DNA of 32,000 bases from Geobacter metallireducens GS-15. Its GTDB lineage: Bacteria > Desulfobacterota > Desulfuromonadia > Geobacterales > Geobacteraceae. Location of the stretch: contig NC_007517.1 of assembly GCF_000012925.1 (NCBI RefSeq), positions 2,820,001 through 2,852,000 of the forward strand. Direction: 5' to 3'. The position numbers were made by a program, and so were the translations under genes. Of this stretch, positions 4,488-27,799 are shown one piece after another (the first letter of the stretch is position 1; the number at the start of each line of letters is the position of its first letter). The notes under the pieces were generated by a model. That model did no database searches and was not told the origin of the DNA. It was given only the letters and a program-made list of their open reading frames with translations.

Positions 4488-5678
4488 CTAAAACTGTACC
4501 CCCATGGCGTCGGCCACCGTGTGAATATCCTTGTCCCCCCGGCCGGAGAGGCAGGCGACGATGGTCTGCTCCCTCGGCAGTGTCGGCGCCAGCTTCACCA
4601 CGTGGGCGATGGCGTGGGACGACTCCAGGGCCGGCATGATCCCCTCCTCCCGGGTCAGGAGCGTGAAGGCCTCCAGGGCCTCATCGTCGGTGACCGACAC
4701 ATACTCGGCCCGCCTGGAATCCTTGAGCCAGGCGTGCTCGGGGCCAACGCCGGGGTAATCAAGGCCGGCGGAAACGGAGTGGGCATTGGCTATCTGGCCG
4801 AACTCATCCTGGAGGAGGTAGGTCTTGTTGCCGTGGAGAACGCCGACCGTCCCGGCGCAGAGCGGCGCCGCGTGGGCTCCGGAGGCGATGCCGTGGCCCG
4901 CGGCCTCCACCCCCACCATCCGGACCTCCCGGTCATTGAGGAACGGGTAGAAGAGCCCCAGGGCATTGCTGCCGCCGCCGACGCAGGCAACGAGAACATC
5001 CGGCAACCTTCCCTCGATCTTCTTGTGCTGGGCCTTGGCCTCCCGGCCGATGACCGACTGGAAGTCGCGGACCATCACCGGATAGGGGTGGGGTCCCGCC
5101 ACGGTGCCGATCACGTAGAAGGTGTTGTGGATGTAGGTCACCCAGTTCCGCATGGCCTCGTTCATGGCGTCCTTGAGGGTGGCGGTGCCGGCGGTCACCG
5201 GCGTAACCTTCGCCCCCAGGAGCTTCATCCGGAAGACGTTCAGGGCCTGGCGCCGGATATCCTCCTCCCCCATGAAGACCTCGCACTCCATGCCGAAGAG
5301 GGCCGCAATGGTGGCCGTGGCCACCCCGTGCTGGCCGGCACCGGTCTCGGCAATGACCCGTTTCTTCCCCATCCGCTTGGCCAGAAGCCCCTGGCCGATG
5401 GTATTGTTCACCTTGTGGGCACCGGTGTGGTTCAGGTCCTCGCGCTTGAGGTAGATCTTCGCGCCCCCCAGCTTTTGCGTGAGCTTCTCGGCAAAGTAGA
5501 GGGGATTGGGGCGCCCCACGTACTGGCGGAGGTAGTAGTCGAACTCCTCCTTGAACTCGCGGTCGTTCTTGTAGTGGTTGTAGGCCTTCTCCAGCTCCAG
5601 GAGCGCCGGCATGAGGGTTTCCGGCACGTAACGGCCGCCGAACTGGCCGAAGTGGCCCTGTTTGTCGGGTAATTTCAT
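4488..5678 (-). CDS. trpB: tryptophan synthase beta chain (TrpB1 type)
   Basis: 396 aa. N-terminus [19 protein letters not shown], the PLP-lysine context [11 protein letters not shown], and GGGSNALG are all canonical TrpB1 motifs. Confidence 0.95.
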
Positions 5679-6736: not shown

Positions 6737-6822
6737 TTGGTTGACCCTTTTTATACGGCTCTTATTGCTTTGAGGCGATAATTGTAACGAGCCCCTTGTC
6801 AAGGGTGGCAAGAGTTAAATTG

Positions 6823-8194
6823 GCCTCGTCCGCAGAATCTGTGGGTAGTTGGCTGAAAAAATAAGGGCATTGCCCCTCCGTGAAGGATAAGATTGTTTTT
6901 GCGAGAAACGATCAAGTCCGACACGGGAGAAGCAATGCTTATCAAGACTGTACTGAACAAGTTCGAGCGTTTCAAGTCCTTCATTTACGGAGATTGCCGA
7001 CTGGCGAAAGTCGGCGGCTCAGAAGCACTGGTCATTGACATCAAGGCTCGTCGCAACAGCAAGCCCGAATGCCCGGAATGTGGCAAGCGAGGCAAGACAT
7101 ACGACACGCAACCGGCCCGACTGTTCGAGTATGTGCCGATCTGGGCGTTCAAGGTCTTCTTTCGCTACGCTCCCCGTCGGGTTCTGTGCCCAATCCATGG
7201 GGTAAAGGTTGAATCCCTCCCCTGGGGGTATGGCAAAGAGCAAATGACGATCTCGTACCAGGTCTATCTTGCCCGGTGGGCTCGGCGACTCTCCTGGAAG
7301 GAAGTTGCCGAAATCTTTAAGACCAGTTGGGACAGCATCTTTCGGGCGGTGCAGTATGCTGTCGATTACGGCCTGGCAAACAGAAACCTTGATGGCGTTA
7401 CGGAAATCGGTGTTGATGAAATTGCCGTCTTCAAGGGCCATCAGTATCTTACGATGGTCTATCAGCTCAATGCCGGCGTCAGGCGTCTTCTCTGGTGTGG
7501 TCCGCAACGTCGGATAAGAACGCTACTGCGCTTCTTTCGGGAATTCGGCAAAGAACGCAGCGCCAAGCTCAAGTATGTCTGCAGCGACATGTGGGCACCG
7601 TATCTCAAGGTTATCGCCAAGCGGGCACCCAATGCCGTGAACATCCTCGACCGCTTCCACATCATGCGGAAGTTTAACGAAGCGATTGACGAGGTTCGGC
7701 GCACCGAAGCCAAGGAGTTCAAGGCCGCCAAGCAGGAGAACGTCCTGGAAAAGGGCCGTTGGTTGCTGCTGAAACGGCCGGAAAATCTGTCCGAGAAGCA
7801 GACGTCACGATTGGGAGATTTGCTCAAGCTCAACCTCTCATCAATCAAGGCATATCTGCTGCGCGAGGACTTTCAGCAGTTCTGGGACTACCAGCGGTCT
7901 GACTTTGCTGGCAAGTTCCTCGACGACTGGGTCATCAGGACAATGCAAACTGACCTGGAACCGATGAAGAAGGTTGCCAGGATGTTACGCAACCACAAAC
8001 CGATGATTCTCAACTGGTTCAAGGCAAAAGGCCGACTTTCCAGCGGCGCGGTAGAGGGTCTGAACCTCAAAGCAAAACTGACTATCAGAAAAGCGTACGG
8101 TTTCCGAACCATCAAGTGCCTGCAAGTGGCGCTATATCACACACTTGGCGACTTGCCAGAACCCCTGTGTCACCACAGATTCTGCTAAAGAGCC
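6823..8194 (+). mobile_element. ISL3-family insertion sequence (1372 bp) with 8-bp target duplication TTAAATTG
   Basis: Terminal inverted repeats are GCCTCGTCCGCAGAATCTGTGG (6823-6844) and the reverse complement of 8173-8194, GGCTCTTTAGCAGAATCTGTGG; the inner 13 nt are identical. Direct repeats TTAAATTG occur at 6815-6822 and 8195-8202. An 8-bp duplication is the ISL3 hallmark. Confidence 0.85.
6935..8188 (+). CDS. ISL3-family transposase
   Basis: The ORF 6893..8188 is probably started at ATG 6935 (MLIKTVLNKFERFK). It has an N-terminal zinc-ribbon CPECGKRG...CP and a DDE_Tnp_ISL3-like body (GVDEIAVFKGHQYLTMVYQL ... DMWAPY ... NAVNILDRFHIMRKFNEAIDEVRR ... SGAVEGLNLKAK). Confidence 0.9.
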   Translation: MLIKTVLNKFERFKSFIYGDCRLAKVGGSEALVIDIKARRNSKPECPECGKRGKTYDTQPARLFEYVPIWAFKVFFRYAPRRVLCPIHGVKVESLPWGYGKEQMTISYQVYLARWARRLSWKEVAEIFKTSWDSIFRAVQYAVDYGLANRNLDGVTEIGVDEIAVFKGHQYLTMVYQLNAGVRRLLWCGPQRRIRTLLRFFREFGKERSAKLKYVCSDMWAPYLKVIAKRAPNAVNILDRFHIMRKFNEAIDEVRRTEAKEFKAAKQENVLEKGRWLLLKRPENLSEKQTSRLGDLLKLNLSSIKAYLLREDFQQFWDYQRSDFAGKFLDDWVIRTMQTDLEPMKKVARMLRNHKPMILNWFKAKGRLSSGAVEGLNLKAKLTIRKAYGFRTIKCLQVALYHTLGDLPEPLCHHRFC

Positions 8195-8870
8195 TTAAAT
8201 TGAAACCGACAGCAGCTAGGATTTCCTTAGTCCATGTGAACGGAACCCGGCATTTGCGGTAGAAACTCTTCCTGAGATTCCAGCCACTGTCAATCTTTTC
8301 GTAGATTAGGTCATGCACCTTGACGTGCTCTAGCTCGTACTCAAGAAAGCAGGTAAAGATTTTGTCTGCATCGTTTCGGACTGGAATAAACCGATCCAGC
8401 CCCTCTAGAGCGGTCGTGAGATCACGGAAGGTCAGGACCAATCGGCCTTTCTCCTCCAAGGCTACAAAGGCTAATCGGCAGAGCTTCTCAACCGCTTCCC
8501 GGTTATCAAGGTGGGTTAAAGTGTCTCCCATACAGACGCACAACTCAGCCTTTCCCTGTAGATGTCTTGGAAAGTTCAGCAGATCGTCCTCTACGGTCAT
8601 TATAGATAGCTCGTCCCGCCGCATGTTCAACTCGACCAACAGCTTAGGGGAAAGGTCGATGGCTGTAACCTGAAAGCCCGCACGGGCCAGCGGTATTGAT
8701 TGAAAACCTGAGCCGGCGCCGAGGTCTATCGCCCGGCGGTTGCCTTGCGGGGTGATCCCGTGGGCCGCGAAGAATCTTTCGTTTTCCGTTGCCCTCGCCT
8801 CAAAGCTGCCAAAGAGCCAGGAGTAATGATCAGCCAAGAGATTTTCGTAATGATCGCGGATGTAAGACAT
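8112..8870 (-). CDS. class I SAM-dependent methyltransferase; the native C-terminus is replaced by an ISL3-encoded tail
   Basis: SAM-binding motif AIDLGAGSGFQSIPLARAGFQVTAIDLS. Codons 1-225 (8870-8196) are native and the last 27 residues (RLFSRICGDTGVLASRQVCDIAPLAGT) are read from the IS end. Removing 6823-8202 restores ...GFNLTLATLDKGLVTIIASKQ* (242 aa, stop at 6764-6762). Confidence 0.8.
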   Translation of the reverse strand: MSYIRDHYENLLADHYSWLFGSFEARATENERFFAAHGITPQGNRRAIDLGAGSGFQSIPLARAGFQVTAIDLSPKLLVELNMRRDELSIMTVEDDLLNFPRHLQGKAELCVCMGDTLTHLDNREAVEKLCRLAFVALEEKGRLVLTFRDLTTALEGLDRFIPVRNDADKIFTCFLEYELEHVKVHDLIYEKIDSGWNLRKSFYRKCRVPFTWTKEILAAVGFNLRLFSRICGDTGVLASRQVCDIAPLAGT

Positions 8871-8909
8871 TTGTCCTCTTTCTACATAAAGGTTTTGTGC
8901 GGCTGGGAC

Positions 8910-9034
8910 GGGGGCTGGGAAGGGGACGGGGGCTGAGTACCGGGAAGGGGACGTAGTTGATTTGTTGATTTAAGCGTTGAGTTAGTCAACTAATCAACTA
9001 CGTCCCCCGATAGACCCCGTCCCCCGATAGACCC
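8910..9034. repeat. copy 1 of the ~85-bp imperfect palindrome family (composite/nested copy)
   Basis: The core GGGAAGGGGACGTAGTTGATTTGTTGATTTAAGCGTTGAGTTAGTCAACTAATCAACTACGTCCCCCGATAGACCCC (8942-9018) is identical to copy 2. It is nested inside a second partial pair of arms: GGGGGCTGGGAAGGGGACG at 8910-8928 and GTCCCCCGATAGACCC at 9019-9034. Confidence 0.9.
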
Positions 9035-9239
9035 TCAATCAAATAGCTTTAGTCTTTTGTACCATGATTTCTGGTTTTCAAAATTGCGGCTTCTCATTTA
9101 ATCCCATTTCAATAAGCTATTTTAAGCTCGGAACACCATGATCTTAGTGTTTGGTTCTTCTATTCTTGCTCAACGGGGCTGCGCTTGATCTGCCGGACGT
9201 ATTCATGCCCGGTCAAGGTCTGAGCGCGGGTTGGACATT

Positions 9240-10160
9240 TTATAGCATTGCTGCTACAGCACACAATCGGTGTTTGAAATACTCGATCCAAGGGTCGTTA
9301 AAATTTATCGTGGCAGCAACAGTTGAAGGGAGTCGCCCAGCCAATCCGTTGCAATCGTGTGGTTGACCCGTCATGATACGCTCAACTTCATCTGCAAGAA
9401 TCAATGAAAACCATTTCCCCTTAAAAATTCTATGATGTTGACCTGTTTTGAAATATCTATCAATCTTCTTATTCGACAATTCCACTTTCCTCATCATTTC
9501 ATCGAAAGATATGTTTGTACGTTGCGCAAGTGTGCGGACAAGGGATTCAAGTGCAATCGTGTCTGTCATACCACAATTACGTGTCTGAATTCGTGAAGGT
9601 GCTCCATAGTTTGCTTCACCACGGATTCCATCTTCAATGAGACGGAAACACAATGCAATCCAGTCACGCCATAAGTGAGAAACCCTTCTGCACCATTCAG
9701 ATGAATTTCCAAGCACACCATGAAGCTTACGAGGATCAATCGAGGCAGCTGCCGCAACTCCAGTAACAAGATCGCCATGCTCAAATATGTAATTTTGAAC
9801 ATCATAATACTGTGTATATATGACGTGTGTTGATCGTAGTTGCTTGCGCTTTATATCGTCAATATCCTTGTCTAAAATGAAAATACAAGCCGTTCTTTTG
9901 CCTTCGAAAAAAGATATGAGCGCACTTTTTCGACGGAGGCACCTAAAATAAGAAATCAACGCTTCTTTGCCACCGGCTCCTCCAGAAATTTGTTGGGCTG
10001 TCGAAATCTCAAATTCAATACTATCGGGTAGTGAAGCTTTACAGACTTTAGCAAAAAAATACGGATCACTCTGCTTCCCTTCGACAAAAATGAAAAGTTG
10101 AGTATTGGAAATCTGCATTGAACGAATATGCCCTGAGTTTGAATGTATTAGACGACTCAT
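9240..10160 (-). CDS. DUF4435 / TOPRIM (OLD-family-like) nuclease-domain protein, AriB-like
   Basis: I start the ORF 9240..10196 at ATG 10160 (MSRLIHSN...), which has GAGGTGG 8 nt upstream; that Shine-Dalgarno sequence overlaps the ATPase stop. TOPRIM-type acidic motifs are LFIFVEGKQSDPYFF (Glu) and IFILDKDIDD (DxD). It directly follows an ABC-type ATPase gene, as in ATPase+DUF4435 pairs. Confidence 0.7.
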   Translation of the reverse strand: MSRLIHSNSGHIRSMQISNTQLFIFVEGKQSDPYFFAKVCKASLPDSIEFEISTAQQISGGAGGKEALISYFRCLRRKSALISFFEGKRTACIFILDKDIDDIKRKQLRSTHVIYTQYYDVQNYIFEHGDLVTGVAAAASIDPRKLHGVLGNSSEWCRRVSHLWRDWIALCFRLIEDGIRGEANYGAPSRIQTRNCGMTDTIALESLVRTLAQRTNISFDEMMRKVELSNKKIDRYFKTGQHHRIFKGKWFSLILADEVERIMTGQPHDCNGLAGRLPSTVAATINFNDPWIEYFKHRLCAVAAML

Positions 10161-10173
10161 ATATATGGCCACC

Positions 10174-10626
10174 TCATATCCTGAATATTTTATCATCAGA
10201 AATATCAGCCATTATTTCAGGCGAATGTGTAGCAAATATTAACTGTGCATCAGCATTAAGTGCTCGTATTGAACTAACCAAGTCTTTTTGCCAATCTATA
10301 TGCATTGAAATTTCAGGTTCATCTATTATAAGTGAACTATCACCAATAAGTAGAGATTCTACCAATATTTTAAGTAGGTGCTTTTCGCCAGATGACAGAG
10401 TTGCTAACCCTATATCTTCGCCTGACATGCTCTTAACCTGTATTGATTTGTCTCCAAAATGAATTGATTTATTAGCAGTAAACATTTTTGAGATAAGCTT
10501 TTGCAGCATGTCTCTTGAACTCACTGCTGACTTAATTTTTTCCTCTACTGAATCAATGTCTTGAACTACATCTTGTAATGTTTGATCAGTTACATATCGT
10601 TTTTCAAAATCACTTCTCTTTCCTAG
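10174..10626 (-). pseudogene. 3' fragment of an ABC/SMC-type ATPase (AriA-like) interrupted by IS5
   Basis: Contains the ABC signature LSSGEKHLL, Walker B SLIIDEPEISMH and H-loop FATHSPE. It is in frame with the 5' fragment once 10627-11971 is removed (see the finding on this gene pair). Confidence 0.85.
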
Positions 10627-11967
10627 CAGGTTGTTGAAAAACTAAACCTTTTTGATTCAATAAGTTAGCGAACTGTGCTATATTTTTACGCGTAACAATC
10701 TGAATTTACAGGAGAAAAGTTATGCGCGGCGCCGAGACAAAAACCGAAGCTCTGTTCTGTTATCTCTCCCCTGAGTCGTACGTCCCGAAGGACCACCCCT
10801 TGCGGTCGATCAGGGCGATGGTGGATAAGGCCCTTGCAGAGCTCAGCCCGCAATTCGAGGCCATGTACTCCCACACCGGCCGGCCCTCGATTCCTCCTGA
10901 GCAGTTGCTTAAAGCACTTCTGCTTCAGGCGCTGTACACCATCAGGAGTAACCGTCTGCTGGTGGAGCAGATCAGCTACAGCATCCTGTTCCGCTGGTTT
11001 GTGGGATTGGCCCTGGACGAGAAGGTCTGGGACCACTCCTCGTTTTCCACCAACCTGGAGCGGTTGATCGATACCGACGTGGCACGGCTGCTCTTGGCAA
11101 AAGTAGTTGAGCAGGCCCGAAGGGCAAAGCTGTTGTCCGACGAGCACTTCAGCGTTGACGGCACCCTCATCGAGGCGTGGGCTTCTATCAAGAGCTTTCG
11201 GCCCAAGGATGGACCAAAGCCTCCAGTGGGTCGTAACACGGAGCGTGATTTCCACGGCGAAAAGCTCAAAAACGACACCCATGCCTCCACCACCGATCCG
11301 GATGCGCGGATTGCCAGGAGAAGCTCGGGCAAAGAGGCGAAGCTCAGTTACCACGGGCACGCTCTCATGGAGAACCGCAACGGGATCATCGTCGATGCCA
11401 GAATCACCCACGCAACCGGTACCGCTGAGCGGGATACCGCAGTCGAGATGATCGCAGACGTCGCCGGTAACAAGCGGATCACCATGGGCGGCGACAAGGG
11501 CTACGACACCAAAGAGTGCGTCAAAGATCTGCGAGCACTCAAGGTAACCCCTCACATTGCTCAGAACACCGCTAACCGCCGCTCAGCCATCGATGGCAGG
11601 ACTACCCGCCACGAAGGCTACAAAACCAGCCTGAGGATTCGCAAGCGGATCGAAGAGGCCTTCGGCTGGCTCAAGACTGTCGGCAATCTCCGCAAGACCC
11701 GGCATCGGGGAATAGCGAAAGTCGACTGGTACTTCACCATGGCCATTGCGGCATACAATCTGGTCCGGCTGCGCAATCTCGGGACGAAAACGGCATAATC
11801 AGGGGAATAATGCGACTCTTGGTGGCAAAGCCCGCCCGAAAAGGCCAAATCAAGGTAAAAAGCAAAGTTTCAAAGAACGAATAGGGCGAGATCAATGCAA
11901 CTATCGGCCTAAAATGATCTCCTTGAAGGGGATTGCCCTGGAAATGAAGGAGTTTTTCAACGGCCTG
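10627..11967 (+). mobile_element. IS5-family insertion sequence (1341 bp) with 4-bp target duplication CTAG
   Basis: Terminal inverted repeats are CAGGTTGTTGAAAAACT (10627-10643) and the reverse complement of 11951-11967, CAGGCCGTTGAAAAACT (15/17). CTAG occurs at 10623-10626 and 11968-11971. A 4-bp CTAG-type duplication is typical of the IS5 group. Confidence 0.85.
10722..11798 (+). CDS. IS5-family DDE transposase
   Basis: 358 aa. The N-terminal domain (YVPKDHPLRSIRAMVD ... GRPSIPPEQLLKALLLQALYTIRSNRLLVEQISYSILFRWFVGL) is InsH-N-terminal-like. The DDE body includes SVDGTLIEAWAS, GDKGYD and RKRIEEAFGWLK. Confidence 0.9.
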   Translation: MRGAETKTEALFCYLSPESYVPKDHPLRSIRAMVDKALAELSPQFEAMYSHTGRPSIPPEQLLKALLLQALYTIRSNRLLVEQISYSILFRWFVGLALDEKVWDHSSFSTNLERLIDTDVARLLLAKVVEQARRAKLLSDEHFSVDGTLIEAWASIKSFRPKDGPKPPVGRNTERDFHGEKLKNDTHASTTDPDARIARRSSGKEAKLSYHGHALMENRNGIIVDARITHATGTAERDTAVEMIADVAGNKRITMGGDKGYDTKECVKDLRALKVTPHIAQNTANRRSAIDGRTTRHEGYKTSLRIRKRIEEAFGWLKTVGNLRKTRHRGIAKVDWYFTMAIAAYNLVRLRNLGTKTA

Positions 11968-12709
11968 CTAGAATTGAAGCGGTTGACTGCCTATCAAGAA
12001 ATGACTTAACCAAATCATACGCGGCGTTAGCAGTGAGTATGTTCTTTCCACAGCTATTTCTTACACTCTGAGGTGAAAGAACTGCTCGAAGTATGCTGGC
12101 TAATCCTTGCTCTTGTGCAGCGCGAACTACACCCAACATCTCAGCAGAATATTTACTCCATAGGATTTCAACTGATTTTGCAAATAATGAATCAAGGTTT
12201 TCTTCCGTTAGCCAAGGCCGACTACCACGGGGATTGTCTTGGGACAGAAAACTCATTTCGTCGCTTACATGGATACGCGAAGTAGGCAGGAACTGGTGCG
12301 CCCAGCGTGTATCTGCACCTTCTTTATCAGAACAAGACCATGACATGTTTTTTTGTAACAGCTGCTCGCGAATAATAACCATTTCATTTTCAATAAATGA
12401 AGGTTGCTTCTTTGATTTGCTAATTCTGGATGAACTATTCTTGCGTATAGCCTTTTTCTCAATTGATCGAGTAAATACCTTGTTGTAATTTAAAGAAAAT
12501 ATGCTTACTTCCGCAGACTTAAATGGAACACCGCTTAGGATCTCTGTCTCGTTAGCCATTGCAGAATGCAGAATTTTTAATAGGGAAGTCTTACCGCTCC
12601 CATTCTGGCCAAAGAATATATTGGTGTCACGATTAAGGTCCATTTCGAGAGGCTTGTCGCGACCAGCGAGCCCTTCAATTCTAAAAGACACGATATGAGA
12701 CATTGCCAT
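11968..12709 (-). pseudogene. 5' fragment of an ABC/SMC-type ATPase (AriA-like) interrupted by IS5
   Basis: MAMSHIVSFRIEGLAGRDKPLEMDLNRDTNIFFGQNGSGKTSLLK (Walker A GQNGSGKTS). The native reading frame ends at the CTAG target site; the track ORF continues 3 codons into the IS (AGR*). The second ATG (12703) has better Shine-Dalgarno spacing. Confidence 0.85.
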
Positions 12710-12830
12710 TTCCTTCCATATAATGATTTTTAAAAAATTCGAATATTACGTCGATTGTTCAACAGCTCAAGGCGCCAGCGGCGGAGCGTCAGCGGAGACC
12801 GCTGTCGCCGCTGGATACTATGTAAGGCCC

Positions 12831-12924
12831 CCCTTGGGGGCTGGGAAGGGGACGTAGTTGATTTGTTGATTTAAGCGTTGAGTTAGTCAACTAATCAACT
12901 ACGTCCCCCGATAGACCCCGAGGG
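12831..12924. repeat. copy 2 of the ~85-bp imperfect palindrome family
   Basis: Arms CCCTTGGGGGCT-GGGAA-GGGGACGTAGTTGATT and AATCAACTACGTCCCC-CGAT-AGACCCCGAGGG. The inner stem is 16 bp and perfect; the outer stem is about 12 bp with 2 mismatches; they are separated by an unpaired 5/4-nt internal loop. It begins directly at the stop codon of the Mrr-type gene. Confidence 0.9.
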
Positions 12925-13722
12925 TTATCTGTTTACTGCTTCAATACTTCCGTCTTCTCTAAGATAAAGAGAGTTGTTTTCAAATACATCTTCCATTATT
13001 GCTCGTGCGACATCATCAACTGTAATAATGTCTTCGGTTTGATGTTCATGCACTGCAACTGTGTATTCTGCCGATTTTATTTTCAGGTTACCTATTTCAG
13101 TGGGGAAATAGGCATCTTCTGGCTCAATTTCTTGAGATGAACCAGTAGGCAATAGTGTAAAGAGATCTCTGAACTTGCATTTCGGAGTACCTTGAGAGTC
13201 AAATATCAGCTCTCGGCCTGAAATGTCATGTGTTTGTAAGGAATAGACTTGAAGTCCTCTTTCGCGAAGCAGCTGTTTTGCATGATCAGTGTCGAACGTC
13301 AGATTGGTAACAGATATTTGCGGTATTTTGAAGTGACCGGTCAGGTGGATGGTCTTTAGGATGTAGTTCACTAGTATCAATCTGATGCCTTTCTCTTTGG
13401 CTAACAGTTTGGCTCCATTCTGAAAACCTTCGGTGGTGGCAAAAATCCCTGTTGCATTACCTATGTCCTCCAGAATTGAAGCGAAGGCAGCCACATGAGA
13501 TTTCTTAACAGATTCCTTGAATTGCTTGCATTCAATACAGGTTTTATACGTCACGCCAGCAAGACGAAATTCCCAGTAAACGTCGATTTGATGGGACGCA
13601 CCACTCTTACCTCTGAGCTTCACATTCTGCAATACTGTTATGTTCTCTACGCCATCGTTCTTAAGGAGCGCATCATGCACATCCTTAACAAGGCGTTCGT
13701 ATCCTTCAGACTCTTTTGTCAT
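12925..13722 (-). CDS. restriction endonuclease (Mrr_cat, PD-(D/E)xK) domain protein with an unassigned C-terminal half
   Basis: 265 aa. GASHQIDVYWEF ... YKTCIECKQFKESVKKSHVAAFASILEDIGNATGIFATTEGFQNGAKLLAKEKGIRLILVN fits the Mrr catalytic-domain pattern (D ... E-x-K, then the GIF-TT-GF segment). I cannot assign the last ~140 aa. Confidence 0.7.
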   Translation of the reverse strand: MTKESEGYERLVKDVHDALLKNDGVENITVLQNVKLRGKSGASHQIDVYWEFRLAGVTYKTCIECKQFKESVKKSHVAAFASILEDIGNATGIFATTEGFQNGAKLLAKEKGIRLILVNYILKTIHLTGHFKIPQISVTNLTFDTDHAKQLLRERGLQVYSLQTHDISGRELIFDSQGTPKCKFRDLFTLLPTGSSQEIEPEDAYFPTEIGNLKIKSAEYTVAVHEHQTEDIITVDDVARAIMEDVFENNSLYLREDGSIEAVNR

Positions 13723-13763
13723 TCGATTTTATGCTCCAGATAACGGGGCTGAGGGTGTGCGGT

Positions 13764-13855
13764 CTTGGGGGCTGGGAAGGGGACGTAGTTGATTTGTTGA
13801 TTTAAGCGTTGAGTTAGTCAACTAATCAACTACATCCCCCGATAGACCCCCATGG
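13764..13855. repeat. copy 3 of the ~85-bp imperfect palindrome family
   Basis: Same core as copies 1 and 2 with one substitution (CTACATCCCC versus CTACGTCCCC). It lies between the higA-like stop and the Mrr-type gene start. Confidence 0.9.
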
Positions 13856-13942
13856 CAGTTAGGAGGAAACTTAGAGTGTCAGGTCTACACCTTGACACTT
13901 TCTGGTAGAACGAAAGCTATCCCTCGCCGCTCTCCAGTCTGA

Positions 13943-14319
13943 TCAAGCCGCGTTTTTGTAAGTATTGTAAGGCTGAATCAGAACGTCTGCCGGTATGCCG
14001 AGACCTTTATGAAGATTCCGGATCATCTCCATGGTCAGCGAACGTTTGCGGTTAAGCACTTCTGATACACGGGCGCGGCTCCCGATATAAGGCTCGAGGT
14101 CGCGACGTGTCAGCCCGCGGCTTTCCATGTAATACAAATTGCCTCAATCGGATCAGGCATAGGGATGCTATAGCGCCTTTCCTCATAGGCTTCCACAAGG
14201 ATTGCCAGCACATCCAGCCGATCTCCTTCAGGTGTATCGGGAGCGGCGTCGAACAGAAGCTCAATCTCTTTGAGCGCGGCCTGATAATCGACCTCGGTTT
14301 TTATAGGTCTGATTTCCAT
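13943..14319 (-). pseudogene. higA: HigA-family (COG5499-type, XRE HTH) antitoxin with a frameshift
   Basis: Track ORFs 14110..14379 (from Met 14319: MEIRPIKTEVDYQAALKEIELLFDAAPDTPEGDRLDVLAILVEAYEERRYSIPMPDPIEAI) and 13943..14137 (YYMESRGLTRRDLEPYIGSRARVSEVLNRKRSLTMEMIRNLHKGLGIPADVLIQPY) are the two halves of one protein family. They are offset by one nucleotide near 14128-14135 (GCAATTTGTATTACATGG). GGAG lies 7 nt before ATG 14319. Confidence 0.7.
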
Positions 14320-14332
14320 ATAATTTCTCCGT

Positions 14333-14416
14333 TCAGATTGTTGCCGCATCAATTTTGTCGTACTCACGATGAGTACCAACGGAATATAGAGTGTCTACAC
14401 CTCGTCTCTCTATGAC
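14333..14416 (-). pseudogene. higB: 3' remnant of a HigB-family (COG4680-type) toxin gene
   Basis: The last 27 codons of track ORF 14333..14872 read VIERRGVDTLYSVGTHREYDKIDAATI*. This matches the conserved C-terminus of this toxin family (..F/YIGTHxEYDKIDAxTI). The stop lies 13 nt before the higA-like ATG. Everything upstream is trpF terminator or trpF, so about 70 codons are missing. Confidence 0.6.
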
Positions 14417-14419
14417 CAT

Positions 14420-14456
14420 GCAAGAAAAGGGGTTGGAATTCCTTCCGTCCCCTTTC
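14420..14456 (-). terminator. putative terminator of trpF at the island junction
   Basis: Stem AAAGGGG (14426-14432) / CCCCTTT (14449-14455) encloses the GGAATTCC palindrome. The minus strand continues with TTTTCTTG. It starts about 30 nt after the trpF stop (14485-14487). Confidence 0.45.
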
Positions 14457-14484
14457 CGATACATTGTCCCGCCCCTCCAGGCCT

Positions 14485-15093
14485 CTATGCTTTCGCCCGT
14501 CGAATAAACTCCCGCACCTTGGCCGCATCCTTTCGGCCCGGGGCGCTCTCCACACCGCCCGAAACGTCCACGGCGTAAGGGTTCACTGCCTCCACCGCCT
14601 CGCGAATGTTGTCGGGGGTGAGCCCGCCGGCAAGGATGACCGGGCCGAACTCCTTGGCCGCCGCTGCGATGTCCCAGTTGAAGGTGAGGCCGGTGCCGCC
14701 GTAGGCCTTGGGGGAATAGGCATCGAGGAGATGGGCCGCGACGCGGTAGTGCTTGATCGGGTCGAGACTCGTGATGTCCTGTACCCGGAAGGCCTTGATC
14801 ACCCGGCGCTCCACGGCTGCGCAGAACTCGGGAGGCTCGTCGCCGTGGAGCTGGACCAGGTCGATGCGGCACCGGGCCGCTGTTTCGTTGACGTATGCGA
14901 TGGGGCGGTTTACGAAGAGGCCCACGGTCTGCACGAAGGGGGGAAGCCCGGCGATGATGCCGGTGGCCTGCTCGGGGGGCACGTGACGGGGAGAGTCTTC
15001 ATGGAAGACGAAGCCGAGGGCATCGGCTCCGGCCTCCACCGCCATGAGGGCGTCCTCCAGGGAGGTTATGCCGCAGATCTTGACGCGAACCAT
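14485..15093 (-). CDS. trpF: phosphoribosylanthranilate isomerase
   Basis: 202 aa. MVRVKICGITSLEDALMAVEAGADALGFVF ... VQLHGDE ... ILAGGLTPDNI, typical TrpF. Start lies 4 nt after the trpB2 stop. Confidence 0.9.
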   Translation of the reverse strand: MVRVKICGITSLEDALMAVEAGADALGFVFHEDSPRHVPPEQATGIIAGLPPFVQTVGLFVNRPIAYVNETAARCRIDLVQLHGDEPPEFCAAVERRVIKAFRVQDITSLDPIKHYRVAAHLLDAYSPKAYGGTGLTFNWDIAAAAKEFGPVILAGGLTPDNIREAVEAVNPYAVDVSGGVESAPGRKDAAKVREFIRRAKA

Positions 15094-26486: not shown

Positions 26487-27799
26487 CACTACTGTCCGGT
26501 TAATAGTTGAATAAGTTCAGTTGGTTGCGCTCAGGATAATCAGCATTTCGCTTGAGAGCCTCCGCAACCAGCGATGAAATGGGCTTTTTCTCGAACAAGT
26601 TGACCTCCAGAATCTGTAGAAAAGTGTAGAGCGAACACGGAACCCCCAACTTCTTTTTCGTGATCGCCACCAGCAGATAGATGCACAAGGCAACCCATAT
26701 CTGGCTCTTCACGGCATTGACTGACGTTCCGATGAACGACTTGATCCGCAGGTGCTGTTTGATCCATTTGAAAAACAGCTCCACCTGCCAGCGCTGCTTG
26801 TAAATCGCAGCCACCGTCGCTGCCGGAATCTCGAAGTTGTTCGTGAGAAATACGAGTCGCTTGTTCCGTTCTTTGTCAACATAGCTGACCCGGCGCAGTT
26901 TCTCCGGATACCCCTTTTTCGACTTCTGCGTCACCAGGGTGATAATCTGGTCTGCCCGTACACCTGATTCCTTGTCCTTCGGATGGGAATATAACCGCTG
27001 GCATTTCAGGTTGTCCTTTGCCCGAACTACGAAGAATGCTCCCTGCTTGTGGATGGAGTGGAGCCGGGCAAAATCGACATACCCTCTGTCCATCGTGTAA
27101 ATGGCATCCTTTGCAACCGGCAGATGGTCCAGCATCCTGACATCGTGGACCTTGCCAGTGGTAATAGTGACCCAGGTTGGAATGGGACCACGCAGATCAA
27201 TGAGCGTATGCATCTTGACCGCCGCCTTGGTTTTGCGGAACTCGGCCCATGGGAACAGCGTAAGGCACAGGTCGATAGTGGTCGAGTCAAAGGCGTAGAG
27301 CGGTTGCGTAAGCTCAACGGCGATGGCATCAGCCTGGTACAGCTGCTGAGCTATGCCGATCAGTACATGACCGAAGTCTTGGAAGATACGCCAGTCCCTG
27401 CGCTCGTTCGCGTCGGCAAGGGTCGTGCGGGAGACATCACCACGAAAGCCGATGTGGTACAGCTTCTCCTGGTGGGAGTTCAGGCAGGTCTCGATATCCC
27501 GCAAGCTCTCACGGCCAGCCATCTGGGCATAAGCCAGGCAGAGGAACTGGTCATAGGTCGAGAACTTCTTCTCCCGATACTCGCCACGGTGTCGGCGAAC
27601 GCAGAGATTGAATTCGTACCGGGGCAGAAACTGCAGAAGTTGTTTGAAAACGGTCGGACCGGTGTGCATTGCTCCCCTCCTGTAAAGGGAGGAAGGCTAC
27701 ACCCAGAACGAATTCATGTCGAAAAAAGAACAATTGTGCCAAAGAGCAATAAAGTTCAACAAGTTACAGCTGTACAATCAAAGTTTACCGGACAGTAGT
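26487..27799 (-). mobile_element. IS4-family insertion sequence (~1.31 kb) with 10-bp target duplication ACGGGCGACT
   Basis: Inverted repeats ACTACTGTCCGGT (26488-26500) and ACCGGACAGTAGT (27787-27799). Direct repeats ACGGGCGACT at 26477-26486 and 27800-27809. Confidence 0.8.
26500..27669 (-). CDS. IS4-family DDE transposase
   Basis: 389 aa. The N-terminus FKQLLQFLPRYEFNLCVRRHRGE...FSTYDQFLCLAYAQMAGRESLRDIE is DUF4372-like. The DDE body includes FDSTTIDLC, MDRGYVDFARL and YKQRWQVELFFKWIKQHLRIKSF. Confidence 0.9.
   Translation of the reverse strand: MHTGPTVFKQLLQFLPRYEFNLCVRRHRGEYREKKFSTYDQFLCLAYAQMAGRESLRDIETCLNSHQEKLYHIGFRGDVSRTTLADANERRDWRIFQDFGHVLIGIAQQLYQADAIAVELTQPLYAFDSTTIDLCLTLFPWAEFRKTKAAVKMHTLIDLRGPIPTWVTITTGKVHDVRMLDHLPVAKDAIYTMDRGYVDFARLHSIHKQGAFFVVRAKDNLKCQRLYSHPKDKESGVRADQIITLVTQKSKKGYPEKLRRVSYVDKERNKRLVFLTNNFEIPAATVAAIYKQRWQVELFFKWIKQHLRIKSFIGTSVNAVKSQIWVALCIYLLVAITKKKLGVPCSLYTFLQILEVNLFEKKPISSLVAEALKRNADYPERNQLNLFNY

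Follow-up and report, generated by a model that had tools for sequence, protein, structure and literature searches.

A pair of co-oriented genes on the chromosome of Geobacter metallireducens GS-15, Gmet_2486 and an adjacent split gene, lies downstream of trpF in a small low-GC cluster, and both members are annotated as hypothetical. The locus raises two questions, namely: what system does the pair encode, and what has become of that system now that an insertion sequence divides one of the genes? The original prediction read the pair as a PARIS-like ATPase plus TOPRIM module whose ATPase gene had been cleanly inactivated by an IS5 element. In the analysis below, "the window" refers to the whole 32-kb stretch of DNA that was analysed. 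We conclude that the locus very probably encodes a compact and divergent PARIS-family (AriA/AriB) system, carried as a promoterless integron-type cassette and inactivated by the IS. The features on which this reading is based are as follows:

9168–9236, minus strand: attC-like site of the cassette; R'' GTCCAAC at 9236–9230, R' GTTGAGC at 9174–9168, with imperfectly palindromic arms
9174–12762, minus strand: whole predicted gene cassette, starting with TTGAACAA at 12762 and ending ...CCCCG at 9174
9240–10160, minus strand: ariB-like gene for a 306-aa DUF4435-type TOPRIM protein, intact
10174–10626, minus strand: 3' part of the ariA-like ATPase gene, containing the LSSGEK signature, Walker B (IIDEPE) and the H-loop (ATHSP), with the stop codon TGA at 10176–10174
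10623–10626, with a second copy at 11968–11971: CTAG target-site duplication, present as a single CTAG in the empty site of the L001 allele
10627–11967, plus strand: IS5-family insertion sequence of 1341 bp with inverted repeats CAGGNNGTTGAAAAACT; transposase ORF at 10722–11798 (358 aa)
11957–12709, minus strand: 250-aa ORF with Walker A GQNGSGKT, the last 4 residues of which are IS-encoded
11968–12703, minus strand: 5' part of the ariA-like ATPase gene, containing Walker A and one half of the helical insert; a CTAG copy makes up its last 4 bases
12763–12832, minus strand: hairpin-forming sequence ending in the G of the G/TTGAAC junction (the slash marks the boundary); Gmet_R0119

An IS5-family element splits the ATPase gene

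Removal of positions 10627–11971 (1345 bp) joins both ATPase fragments in frame into a single 396-aa ORF (...DRQSTASILGKRSDFEKRYV...), as had been predicted. The same junction is found intact in nature: L001, an allele from another sample with 92.9% DNA identity over 2258 bp, has one CTAG at the site, encodes an uninterrupted 394-aa ATPase and reads exactly across the junction. It therefore provides the expected IS-free allele with the same reading frame in a relative; none was found in G. metallireducens itself. The native ATPase probably has 394 and not 396 residues, starting two codons later, because relatives begin at MSHIV, which corresponds to the second ATG (12703), and this ATG has better Shine-Dalgarno spacing than the ATG at 12709.

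The inserted element has the hallmarks of the IS5 family, namely: a DDE transposase, terminal inverted repeats and a short target duplication. The repeats agree at 15 of 17 positions, and the transposase, which comprises DUF772 and DDE_Tnp_1 domains, scores 293.4 bits against the IS5-family model NF033581 of NCBIfam (cut-off 140). The IS is oriented opposite to the operon and its CTAG target lies where the ATPase gene encodes the helical insert, so that the Walker A half is parted from the signature/Walker B half and the nuclease gene is left untouched. No decay is visible in either ATPase fragment. Between the window and L001, dN/dS is 0.044 for ariA (0.050 and 0.036 for its fragments taken singly) and 0.12 for ariB. 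Measured against the divergence of the cassette from its closest known allele, the insertion is recent.

Transposase, inverted repeats, CTAG duplication and the L001 empty site thus bear out the clean IS5 insertion. The further description of the locus as a natural knock-out of a potentially toxic system goes too far. The split of the ATPase gene by the IS stands, and loss of function is something we infer. As a separate observation, in another allele, L004, the 3' ATPase fragment runs at CTAG into unrelated DNA without an IS.

The repaired ATPase and its partner resemble AriA and AriB

PARIS loci can be detected by the rule of Rousset 2022 (AAA_15 at ≥32 bits or AAA_21 at ≥27 bits, with a partner matching DUF4435, PF14491, at ≥27 bits). 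The repaired ATPase clears both ATPase thresholds, scoring 70.2 bits for AAA_21 and 66.8 bits for AAA_15 in Pfam; in the genome as it stands, the gene is split. These matches place the protein in the ABC/SMC-type clade, as proposed, and AriA is its best match by defence model, by PDB sequence and by PDB fold alike. The PADLOC AriA model PDLC04164 tops the 126 matches (E=3.6e-36), AriA 8ux9_B is the top PDB sequence match (E=3.2e-15), and the 15 best Foldseek matches of the predicted structure are all AriA chains, with E-values as low as 3.5e-17 and TM reaching 0.58. Among 51 relatives, Walker A K40, signature S324-G326-E327-K328, Walker B E349 and H380 are invariant, and D348 is nearly so. It had also been suspected that the protein is shorter than AriA, which is the case (394–396 aa vs. 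464 aa for E. coli AriA); lengths of about 390–400 aa prevail across the whole family. A disordered basic loop occupies approximately residues 85–118.

For the partner, the assignment to DUF4435/TOPRIM is supported by several lines of evidence other than its own Pfam matches. The 306-aa protein itself has no match in current Pfam-A, DUF4435 included, even at E≤10, and an NCBIfam search returned nothing useful. These are the PADLOC AriB model PDLC02983 (30.6 bits, E=8.4e-8), Pfam DUF4435 (PF14491) matches in 28 of 51 relatives (best E=3.2e-9), conserved residues that are putatively catalytic, among them the TOPRIM Glu and DxD, and the fold. E27, D32, D97 and K98 are invariant in the 51 relatives, D99, D101 and D102 nearly so, and all of the acidic ones are present in the window protein; judged by their order and spacing, they may be equivalent to the catalytic residues E26, D30, D88 and E90 of E. 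coli AriB (PMC11464382). The AF2 model of the partner (pLDDT 92.9) has AriB 8ux9_A (E=5.5e-6, prob 1.0, TM 0.54, over 306 aa) and 8v46_D as its only significant PDB fold matches. In PDB sequence searches, with either the partner alone or a 51-sequence profile, AriB was not found, so that in the PDB the link is made by the fold search only. The family profile recovers 679 clusters among 1.84 billion representatives and, with HMMER, does not reach the bulk of AriB/DUF4435. A tblastn search with the partner found no counterpart in 72,556 plasmids. With AriA and AriB ranking best by both models and fold, the PARIS-like reading of the pair is supported, and neither of the outcomes that had been named as refuting it was observed; it should be noted that the fold similarity is moderate (TM 0.5–0.58, with 12–17% identity).

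The two genes are adjacent and on the same strand in the window, and their association is widespread: of 43 genomic loci, drawn from many phyla, 42 have a full-length ATPase homologue whose end lies 0–58 nt upstream of the partner gene. As had been claimed, the ATPase stop codon TGA (10176–10174) overlaps a Shine-Dalgarno sequence, GAGGTGG (10175–10169), which is followed by 8 nt and the partner ATG at 10160; this is read directly from the sequence.

The module is probably an integron-type gene cassette

The original prediction did not recognize the cassette nature of the module. After the partner stop codon, the stretch 9168–9236 reads GTCCAAC...GTTGAGC with paired arms and bulges, which corresponds to the attC pattern that we used as a criterion (an imperfect palindrome at the 3' end with RYYYAAC and GTTRRRY boxes). 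The same type of site is seen again in L003 and, twice, in L001. Furthermore, the cassette unit is 2244 bp in the window without the IS (3589 bp with it), 2246 bp in L001 and 2250 bp in L003, and all three start G/TTGAACAA and end CCCG/TT, with slashes at the boundaries. The unit thus recurs in different arrays with its boundaries at the G/TT crossover point, and the flanks of the three alleles are unrelated, with 36–58% identity outside the unit vs. 76–93% inside. In L056, an integron integrase (TIGR02249, 441.7 bits, cut-off 265) is followed by cassettes of which the second is a homologous pair. A long array of small ORFs on the same strand is seen in L054.

A motif-plus-folding (regex) scan for attC sites yielded no excess of sites over shuffled sequence and is not discriminating. 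For this reason, the cassette claim rests on the conserved boundaries and the IntI-linked relative, and 9168–9236 is considered an attC candidate. No integron integrase or tyrosine recombinase was found in the 32-kb window, and the array is thus an integrase-less, CALIN-like cluster; at least two intI genes have been reported elsewhere in G. metallireducens (PMC2426708). The hairpin at 12763–12832, labelled ‘conserved nucleotide sequence’ in the published annotation, probably represents the 3' portion of the attC site that belongs to the preceding (Mrr) cassette. Rfam and tRNA scans of the 32-kb window found nothing, and promoter- and terminator-like sites in 8800–14600 are no more frequent than expected by chance. 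We consider a promoterless two-gene integron-type cassette to be very likely, as part of the overall reading given above.

Other readings of the pair and of its present state

The pair could belong to another defence family that combines an ATPase with TOPRIM, whether one resembling AbiL (AbiLi/AbiLii) or a distinct OLD-like lineage, and share only its fold with PARIS, in which case trigger, target or activation could differ, with DNA rather than tRNA being cut, for example. The PADLOC models for AbiLi (E=7.2e-17) and AbiLii (E=0.0096) do match, as do many PtuA, OLD-like and retron ATPase models in the case of the ATPase, and the partner belongs to a sharply bounded family with just 12% identity to AriB and no HMMER link to the E. 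coli protein. The AbiL matches are, however, much weaker than those to AriA (3.6e-36 vs. 7.2e-17) and AriB (8.4e-8 vs. 0.0096). AriB is the sole significant fold match of the partner, with an alignment spanning all 306 aa, AriA chains take the top 15 places for the ATPase fold, and more than half of the relatives match DUF4435. In addition, ATPase and TOPRIM are unfused, unlike in OLD/Gabija, and an HNH partner is absent, unlike in Septu/retron systems. We therefore regard an AbiL- or OLD-like identity as improbable. A Septu/retron-type PtuA-PtuB pair was considered separately and rejected, since the partner lacks an HNH match and has an AriB-like fold, and PtuA models match the ATPase weakly.

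With the PARIS assignment preferred, the remaining issue is whether the interrupted system still works. Function might be kept if the ATPase halves were made separately and reassembled, in the manner of split SMC/Rad50-type heads, or if the IS acted as a reversible on/off switch. The split does fall in the helical insert, outside the nucleotide-binding lobes, a 116-aa ORF with a GTG start spans the C-terminal lobe, and the disrupted allele is found in several assemblies. Both fragments are also undecayed; a recent insertion explains this equally well. On the other hand, the 3' fragment has no recognisable promoter or Shine-Dalgarno sequence, promoter-like sites being at chance level, and the opposite orientation of the IS would be polar on read-through transcription. 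In E. coli, PARIS function is abolished when ariA is interrupted (PMC11464382, Extended Data Fig. 4 legend), and AriB alone provides no defence (PMC11464382). Retained function is thus highly improbable in our view, and the PARIS system at this locus has presumably ceased to defend its host, leaving an orphan nuclease that is likely to be largely inert.

Proposed mechanism and comparison with known systems

In E. coli, PARIS forms an AriA6:AriB3 complex from which AriB is released upon triggering and cleaves tRNA (PMC11464382). By analogy, the intact ATPase of approximately 394 aa would oligomerise and keep the 306-aa TOPRIM nuclease inactive, and it would detect a trigger encoded by the phage, for which its disordered basic loop is a possible sensor. 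The released nuclease would then cut host RNA (tRNA in E. coli), such that translation stops. In this scheme, trigger, target RNA and complex stoichiometry are all extrapolated from a single E. coli system.

Our reference was the PARIS system of E. coli B185 (Rousset 2022, PMC9122126; Burman 2024, PMC11464382; PDB 8UX9, 8V46). Both systems consist of a co-oriented AAA_15/AAA_21 ABC ATPase gene followed by a DUF4435-type TOPRIM gene; the partner, at 306 aa, equals the AriB chain length in the PDB; the catalytic Glu, the acidic cluster and the ATPase motifs are conserved; and the predicted folds are best matched in the PDB by AriA and AriB. They differ in that the window ATPase is about 70 aa shorter, mostly in the helical insert and C-terminal tail, identity is 12–17%, and the partner falls below the current Pfam DUF4435 threshold. 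Moreover, the window module occupies an integron-type cassette and is IS-inactivated, whereas the E. coli system resides in a P4 satellite hotspot.

A PARIS-type defence packed as an integron cassette has a precedent in Brc59 (Gcu59), the AriAB homologue that a mobile integron carries as a cassette (Kieffer et al., bioRxiv 10.1101/2024.07.02.601719). Going by its description, the window module differs from it in being a two-gene version from a different clade, and it is chromosomal, in Desulfobacterota-type arrays, with no integrase gene within the 32-kb window. AbiL, the OLD family and Gabija likewise combine an ABC ATPase with a TOPRIM nuclease, which serve in abortive infection or defence. 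Matches to the AbiL models are far weaker than those to AriA/AriB, and OLD/GajA fuse both domains and use Toprim_Old, which was not detected in the window module.

The analysis gives a functional assignment to genes of a model metal-reducing bacterium that so far carried the label hypothetical, and it provides a clean natural case of an IS-silenced defence system together with an exact repair recipe. The compact two-gene PARIS clade adds to the increasing number of defence systems known from integron cassettes, and its 2.2-kb size and clear empty-site allele make it experimentally tractable. PARIS, IS-inactivated defence genes and integron defence cassettes have all been described before, so the finding leaves concepts unchanged and is correct yet fairly ordinary. 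A bolder view, which we hold to be rather unlikely, is that the clade of approximately 680 clusters is a distinct miniaturised PARIS lineage, spreading as a 2.2-kb integron cassette; its short ATPase with the basic disordered loop might respond to another class of phage trigger, and its TOPRIM partner might cleave an RNA other than the tRNAs that are targeted by E. coli AriB. Integron cassette arrays in environmental Desulfobacterota would then serve as a source of small PARIS variants that are easily moved.

Neighbouring elements

Two further features of the surroundings were considered. A neighbouring methyltransferase matches mad2 and the ATPase matches mad3, and the MADS link that these matches bring to mind was rejected, since the methyltransferase is part of a separate unit on the far side of the attC-like site, and the match to mad3 is generic. 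Three 92-nt direct repeats were considered as attC sites and rejected as well. GTAG stands at the start of their arms, and a transposase gene of the Y1_Tnp type (IS200-like HUH) is flanked by these arms in contigs from metagenomes; the repeats are therefore REPIN-like.

An IS5-family element splits the ATPase gene of a PARIS-like pair

The module and its closest surroundings consist of the following features:

11957-12709, minus strand: 5' ORF of the ATPase gene, 250 aa, with Walker A GQNGSGKT
10627-11967: IS5-family element, 1341 bp, flanked by CTAG at both ends
10722-11798, plus strand: transposase ORF between the ATPase pieces, 358 aa, with DUF772 and DDE_Tnp_1 domains
10174-10626, minus strand: C-terminal part of the ATPase gene, with LSSGEK, IIDEPE and ATHSP
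9240-10160, minus strand: partner ORF, 306 aa
9236-9168, minus strand: attC-like site, a 69-nt imperfect palindrome (GTCCAAC-...-GTTGAGC) right after the partner stop codon

The transposase scores 293 bits against NCBIfam NF033581 'IS5 family transposase' (cut-off 140), and the terminal inverted repeats of the element (CAGGNNGTTGAAAAACT) match at 15/17 positions. Deletion of the element with one CTAG copy (10627-11971) yields a single in-frame ORF of 396 aa, reading ...DRQSTASILGKRSDFEKRYV..., exactly as in the original prediction. The proposed overlap of the ATPase stop with the Shine-Dalgarno sequence of the partner gene is also found, the TGA at 10176-10174 overlapping GAGGTGG, 8 nt before the partner ATG at 10160. 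The predicted ORF length is correct, but the start probably lies slightly further in: all close relatives begin at the second ATG (12703; MSHIV), where the Shine-Dalgarno spacing is also better, so that the native ATPase is probably 394 aa long.

An IS-free allele is found on L001, the contig (Logan SRR3098967) that encodes P0001, the closest partner homologue (94% identical), with an uninterrupted 394-aa ATPase gene directly 5'. L001 and the repaired window DNA are 92.9% identical across 2258 bp; L001 has a single CTAG at the site, and its protein reads through the junction as ...STASILGKRSEFEK..., which independently confirms the repair. More than 100 additional homologues of the repaired protein, 390-400 aa in length, align over 99% of its length. 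Between the window and L001, dN/dS is 0.044 for the ATPase (0.050 and 0.036 for each fragment alone) and 0.12 for the partner. These low values, in both ATPase fragments as well, argue that the insertion is young relative to the divergence of the two alleles (dS ~0.3) and that nothing else is broken.

The draft genome GCA_000243475.2 also has the disrupted allele, on a contig that ends at the IS boundary, as do several sequencing runs; six contigs on record encode the IS-truncated 250-aa product. No IS-free allele at near-100% identity was found among the homologous contigs recovered. On one contig (L004 4363-4545; Logan SRR29924337), the partner gene and 3' ATPase fragment are 100% identical to the window, and the sequence continues from the CTAG of the IS junction into unrelated DNA without IS sequence, beside a CDP-alcohol phosphatidyltransferase gene. 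The IS junction is normal on a contig from the sister run (L005); an IS-associated rearrangement, or a deletion, in the culture behind L004 may explain the difference.

The repaired ATPase and its partner resemble AriA and AriB

The HMM searches suggested for the repaired protein match Pfam AAA_21 (E=4e-19) and AAA_15 (E=3.6e-18), and the top one of 126 PADLOC matches is the AriA model PDLC04164 (E=3.6e-36). The top PDB match by sequence is likewise AriA (8ux9_B, 464 aa; E=3.2e-15). In Foldseek searches with the AF2 model (mean pLDDT 81.7; disordered segments 89-118 and 146-161), AriA chains occupy ranks 1-15 (E down to 3.5e-17, TM up to 0.58), with retron/Septu PtuA ranking next and SMC/Rad50 heads after that. 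None of the catalytic motifs varies among 51 relatives.

The partner protein itself has zero matches in current Pfam, even at E<=10, and nothing relevant is found in the PDB by sequence with either the single protein or a 51-member profile. The PADLOC AriB model matches residues 21-131 (E=8.4e-8), Pfam DUF4435 is matched by 28 of the 51 relatives, and one relative carries the NCBI name DUF4435. The partner has a confident AF2 model (pLDDT 92.9, pTM 0.90), which significantly matches the fold of only two PDB chains, both of them AriB: 8ux9_A (E=5.5e-6) and 8v46_D (E=1.3e-5), with probability 1.0 and TM 0.50-0.54; these chains have 305-306 residues, a length similar to that of the partner. In the alignment of relatives, E27, G28, D32 and the D97-K98 pair never vary, and D99, D101 and D102 are almost as strictly conserved; judged from this alignment, the conserved acidic residues are the TOPRIM Glu + DxD pattern. 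In E. coli, the residues used by AriB are E26, D30, D88, E90 and E122 (PMC11464382).

In 42 of 43 genomic loci the partner gene is preceded, at a distance of 0-58 nt, by the end of a full-length ATPase homologue; the remaining locus has no upstream sequence present. These loci are from Desulfobacterota, Planctomycetota, Chloroflexota, Acidobacteriota, Streptomyces, Burkholderiales and others. An exhaustive profile search with the partner family returned 679 clusters among 1.84 billion representatives, 621 of them below 1e-10; HMMER thus delimits the family sharply, as a clade unconnected to the bulk of AriB proteins. One 512-aa relative (P0083) matches DUF4435 and AAA_15/AAA_21 in one protein, and a fused form may thus exist in the clade, like the merged AriAB forms already reported.

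By architecture, motifs and fold, the module is a compact and divergent member of the PARIS family. Compared to E. coli PARIS, its ATPase is ~70 aa shorter than AriA, the identity is only 12-17%, and the partner falls below the current Pfam threshold. PARIS systems, defence genes inactivated by an IS and integron-borne defence cassettes are all known kinds already. We consider it unlikely that the clade is a distinct miniaturised PARIS lineage, spread by integrons, with its own trigger and target.

E. coli PARIS provides a model for the mechanism: ATPase scaffold, nuclease sequestration, phage trigger and tRNA cleavage (PMC11464382). By analogy, the ATPase scaffold would sequester the nuclease, a phage protein would trigger its ATP-dependent release, and the nuclease, once free, would form dimers that cut tRNA, resulting in translation arrest. 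The domain content, catalytic residues, folds and strict gene pairing are seen in the module and its relatives; the complex, trigger and target are inferred from the E. coli model. The disordered ATPase segment KKAIRKNSSSRISKSKKQ (about residues 85-102) is basic, as are the pore loops with which AriA contacts the acidic Ocr trigger, a resemblance that is only a hint. Since the ATPase gene is split, the system in the window should not defend. It can thus fairly be called a natural knock-out, as originally proposed, although the case for a potentially toxic system is weaker than was implied.

The module is probably carried as an integron-type cassette

The site at 9236-9168 shows the RYYYAAC and GTTRRRY boxes typical of integron attC. 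Similar sites flank the module on both sides in L001 and lie 3' of it in L003, a contig with a third allele. In all three alleles (window, L001 and L003) the cassette unit starts at G/TTGAACAA and ends at ...CCCG/TT, with lengths of 2244, 2246 and 2250 bp, respectively. Divergence begins at the end junction (TTGAGC, TTGTGC and TTATAC), and identity is 76-93% within the unit and 36-58% outside. As far as sequence comparison can tell, this pattern is the signature of a cassette recombined at the G/TT crossover into different arrays.

In L056, from a Desulfobacteraceae genome, a divergent integron integrase (441.7 bits against TIGR02249, cut-off 265) is followed by cassettes, of which the homologous pair is the second, bounded by GCCCAAC...GTTAGGC-type sites. 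On another contig (L054), the pair lies within a long array of small ORFs that share one strand and lack annotation; the array also includes a ParE toxin and a fragment of a group II intron maturase. A motif-plus-folding attC scan performed no better than on shuffled sequence, and support for the cassette interpretation comes from the comparison of boundaries and from the relative linked to IntI. There is no integrase gene within the 32-kb window, so that 'integrase-less' (CALIN-like) is the best description of the local cluster; G. metallireducens is reported to have at least two intI genes elsewhere (PMC2426708). A precedent is Brc59, a PARIS homologue in a mobile-integron cassette (bioRxiv 10.1101/2024.07.02.601719).

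Surrounding low-GC cluster and 92-nt repeats

A stretch of low GC (41-45% vs. about 60-67%) lies between trpF (14485-15093) and trpB1 (4488-5678), and all its genes are co-stranded with the trp operon, so that promoterless cassettes might be read through from trp. Other features of the region are:

14375-14441, minus strand: hairpin with TTCCAAC ... GTTGGTA ends, just 3' of trpF at the trp-proximal edge of the cluster
13943-14379, minus strand: HigA-like HTH antitoxin gene
12925-13722: Mrr_cat endonuclease gene
8112-8870 / 6776-6822: SAM-dependent methyltransferase gene, the next unit
6823-8194: ISL3-family IS, 1372 bp, 431-aa transposase, 8-bp duplication TTAAATTG
26500-27669: transposase gene, 389 aa, DDE_Tnp_1 + DUF4372
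8932-9023, 12833-12924 and 13764-13855: 92-nt direct repeat, three copies

The hairpin is a candidate for the first attC-like site, or entry site, of the array. The ISL3-family element, the second IS insertion in this small cluster, cuts off the last ~17 codons of the methyltransferase gene, and its removal restores a 242-aa ORF. A frameshift divides the antitoxin gene, annotated as 'transcriptional regulator, frameshifted' (Gmet_2491), into 89-aa and 64-aa ORFs, with no toxin partner evident at the locus. Counting the two IS hits and the frameshift, 3 of 4 units are damaged, and only the endonuclease gene looks intact. The transposase gene at 26500-27669 adds to the high IS load of the region.

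Each 92-nt repeat folds into a near-perfect hairpin with a 22-bp stem (GGGGAC-GTAG-TTGATTWGTTGA ...; z = -8.3). The 2009 genome paper lists these repeats as 'group 9 predicted short RNAs' (Gmet_R9001-9003; 4 copies genome-wide). In a metagenome scan, repeat arms were found in 25 contigs, and in three of these (L081, L076 and L077) arms ~1 kb apart flank the gene of a 337-aa Y1_Tnp (IS200-like HUH) transposase. From this arrangement the repeats look less like attC sites or small RNAs, both of which we reject, than like REPIN-type elements that a RAYT-like transposase mobilises.
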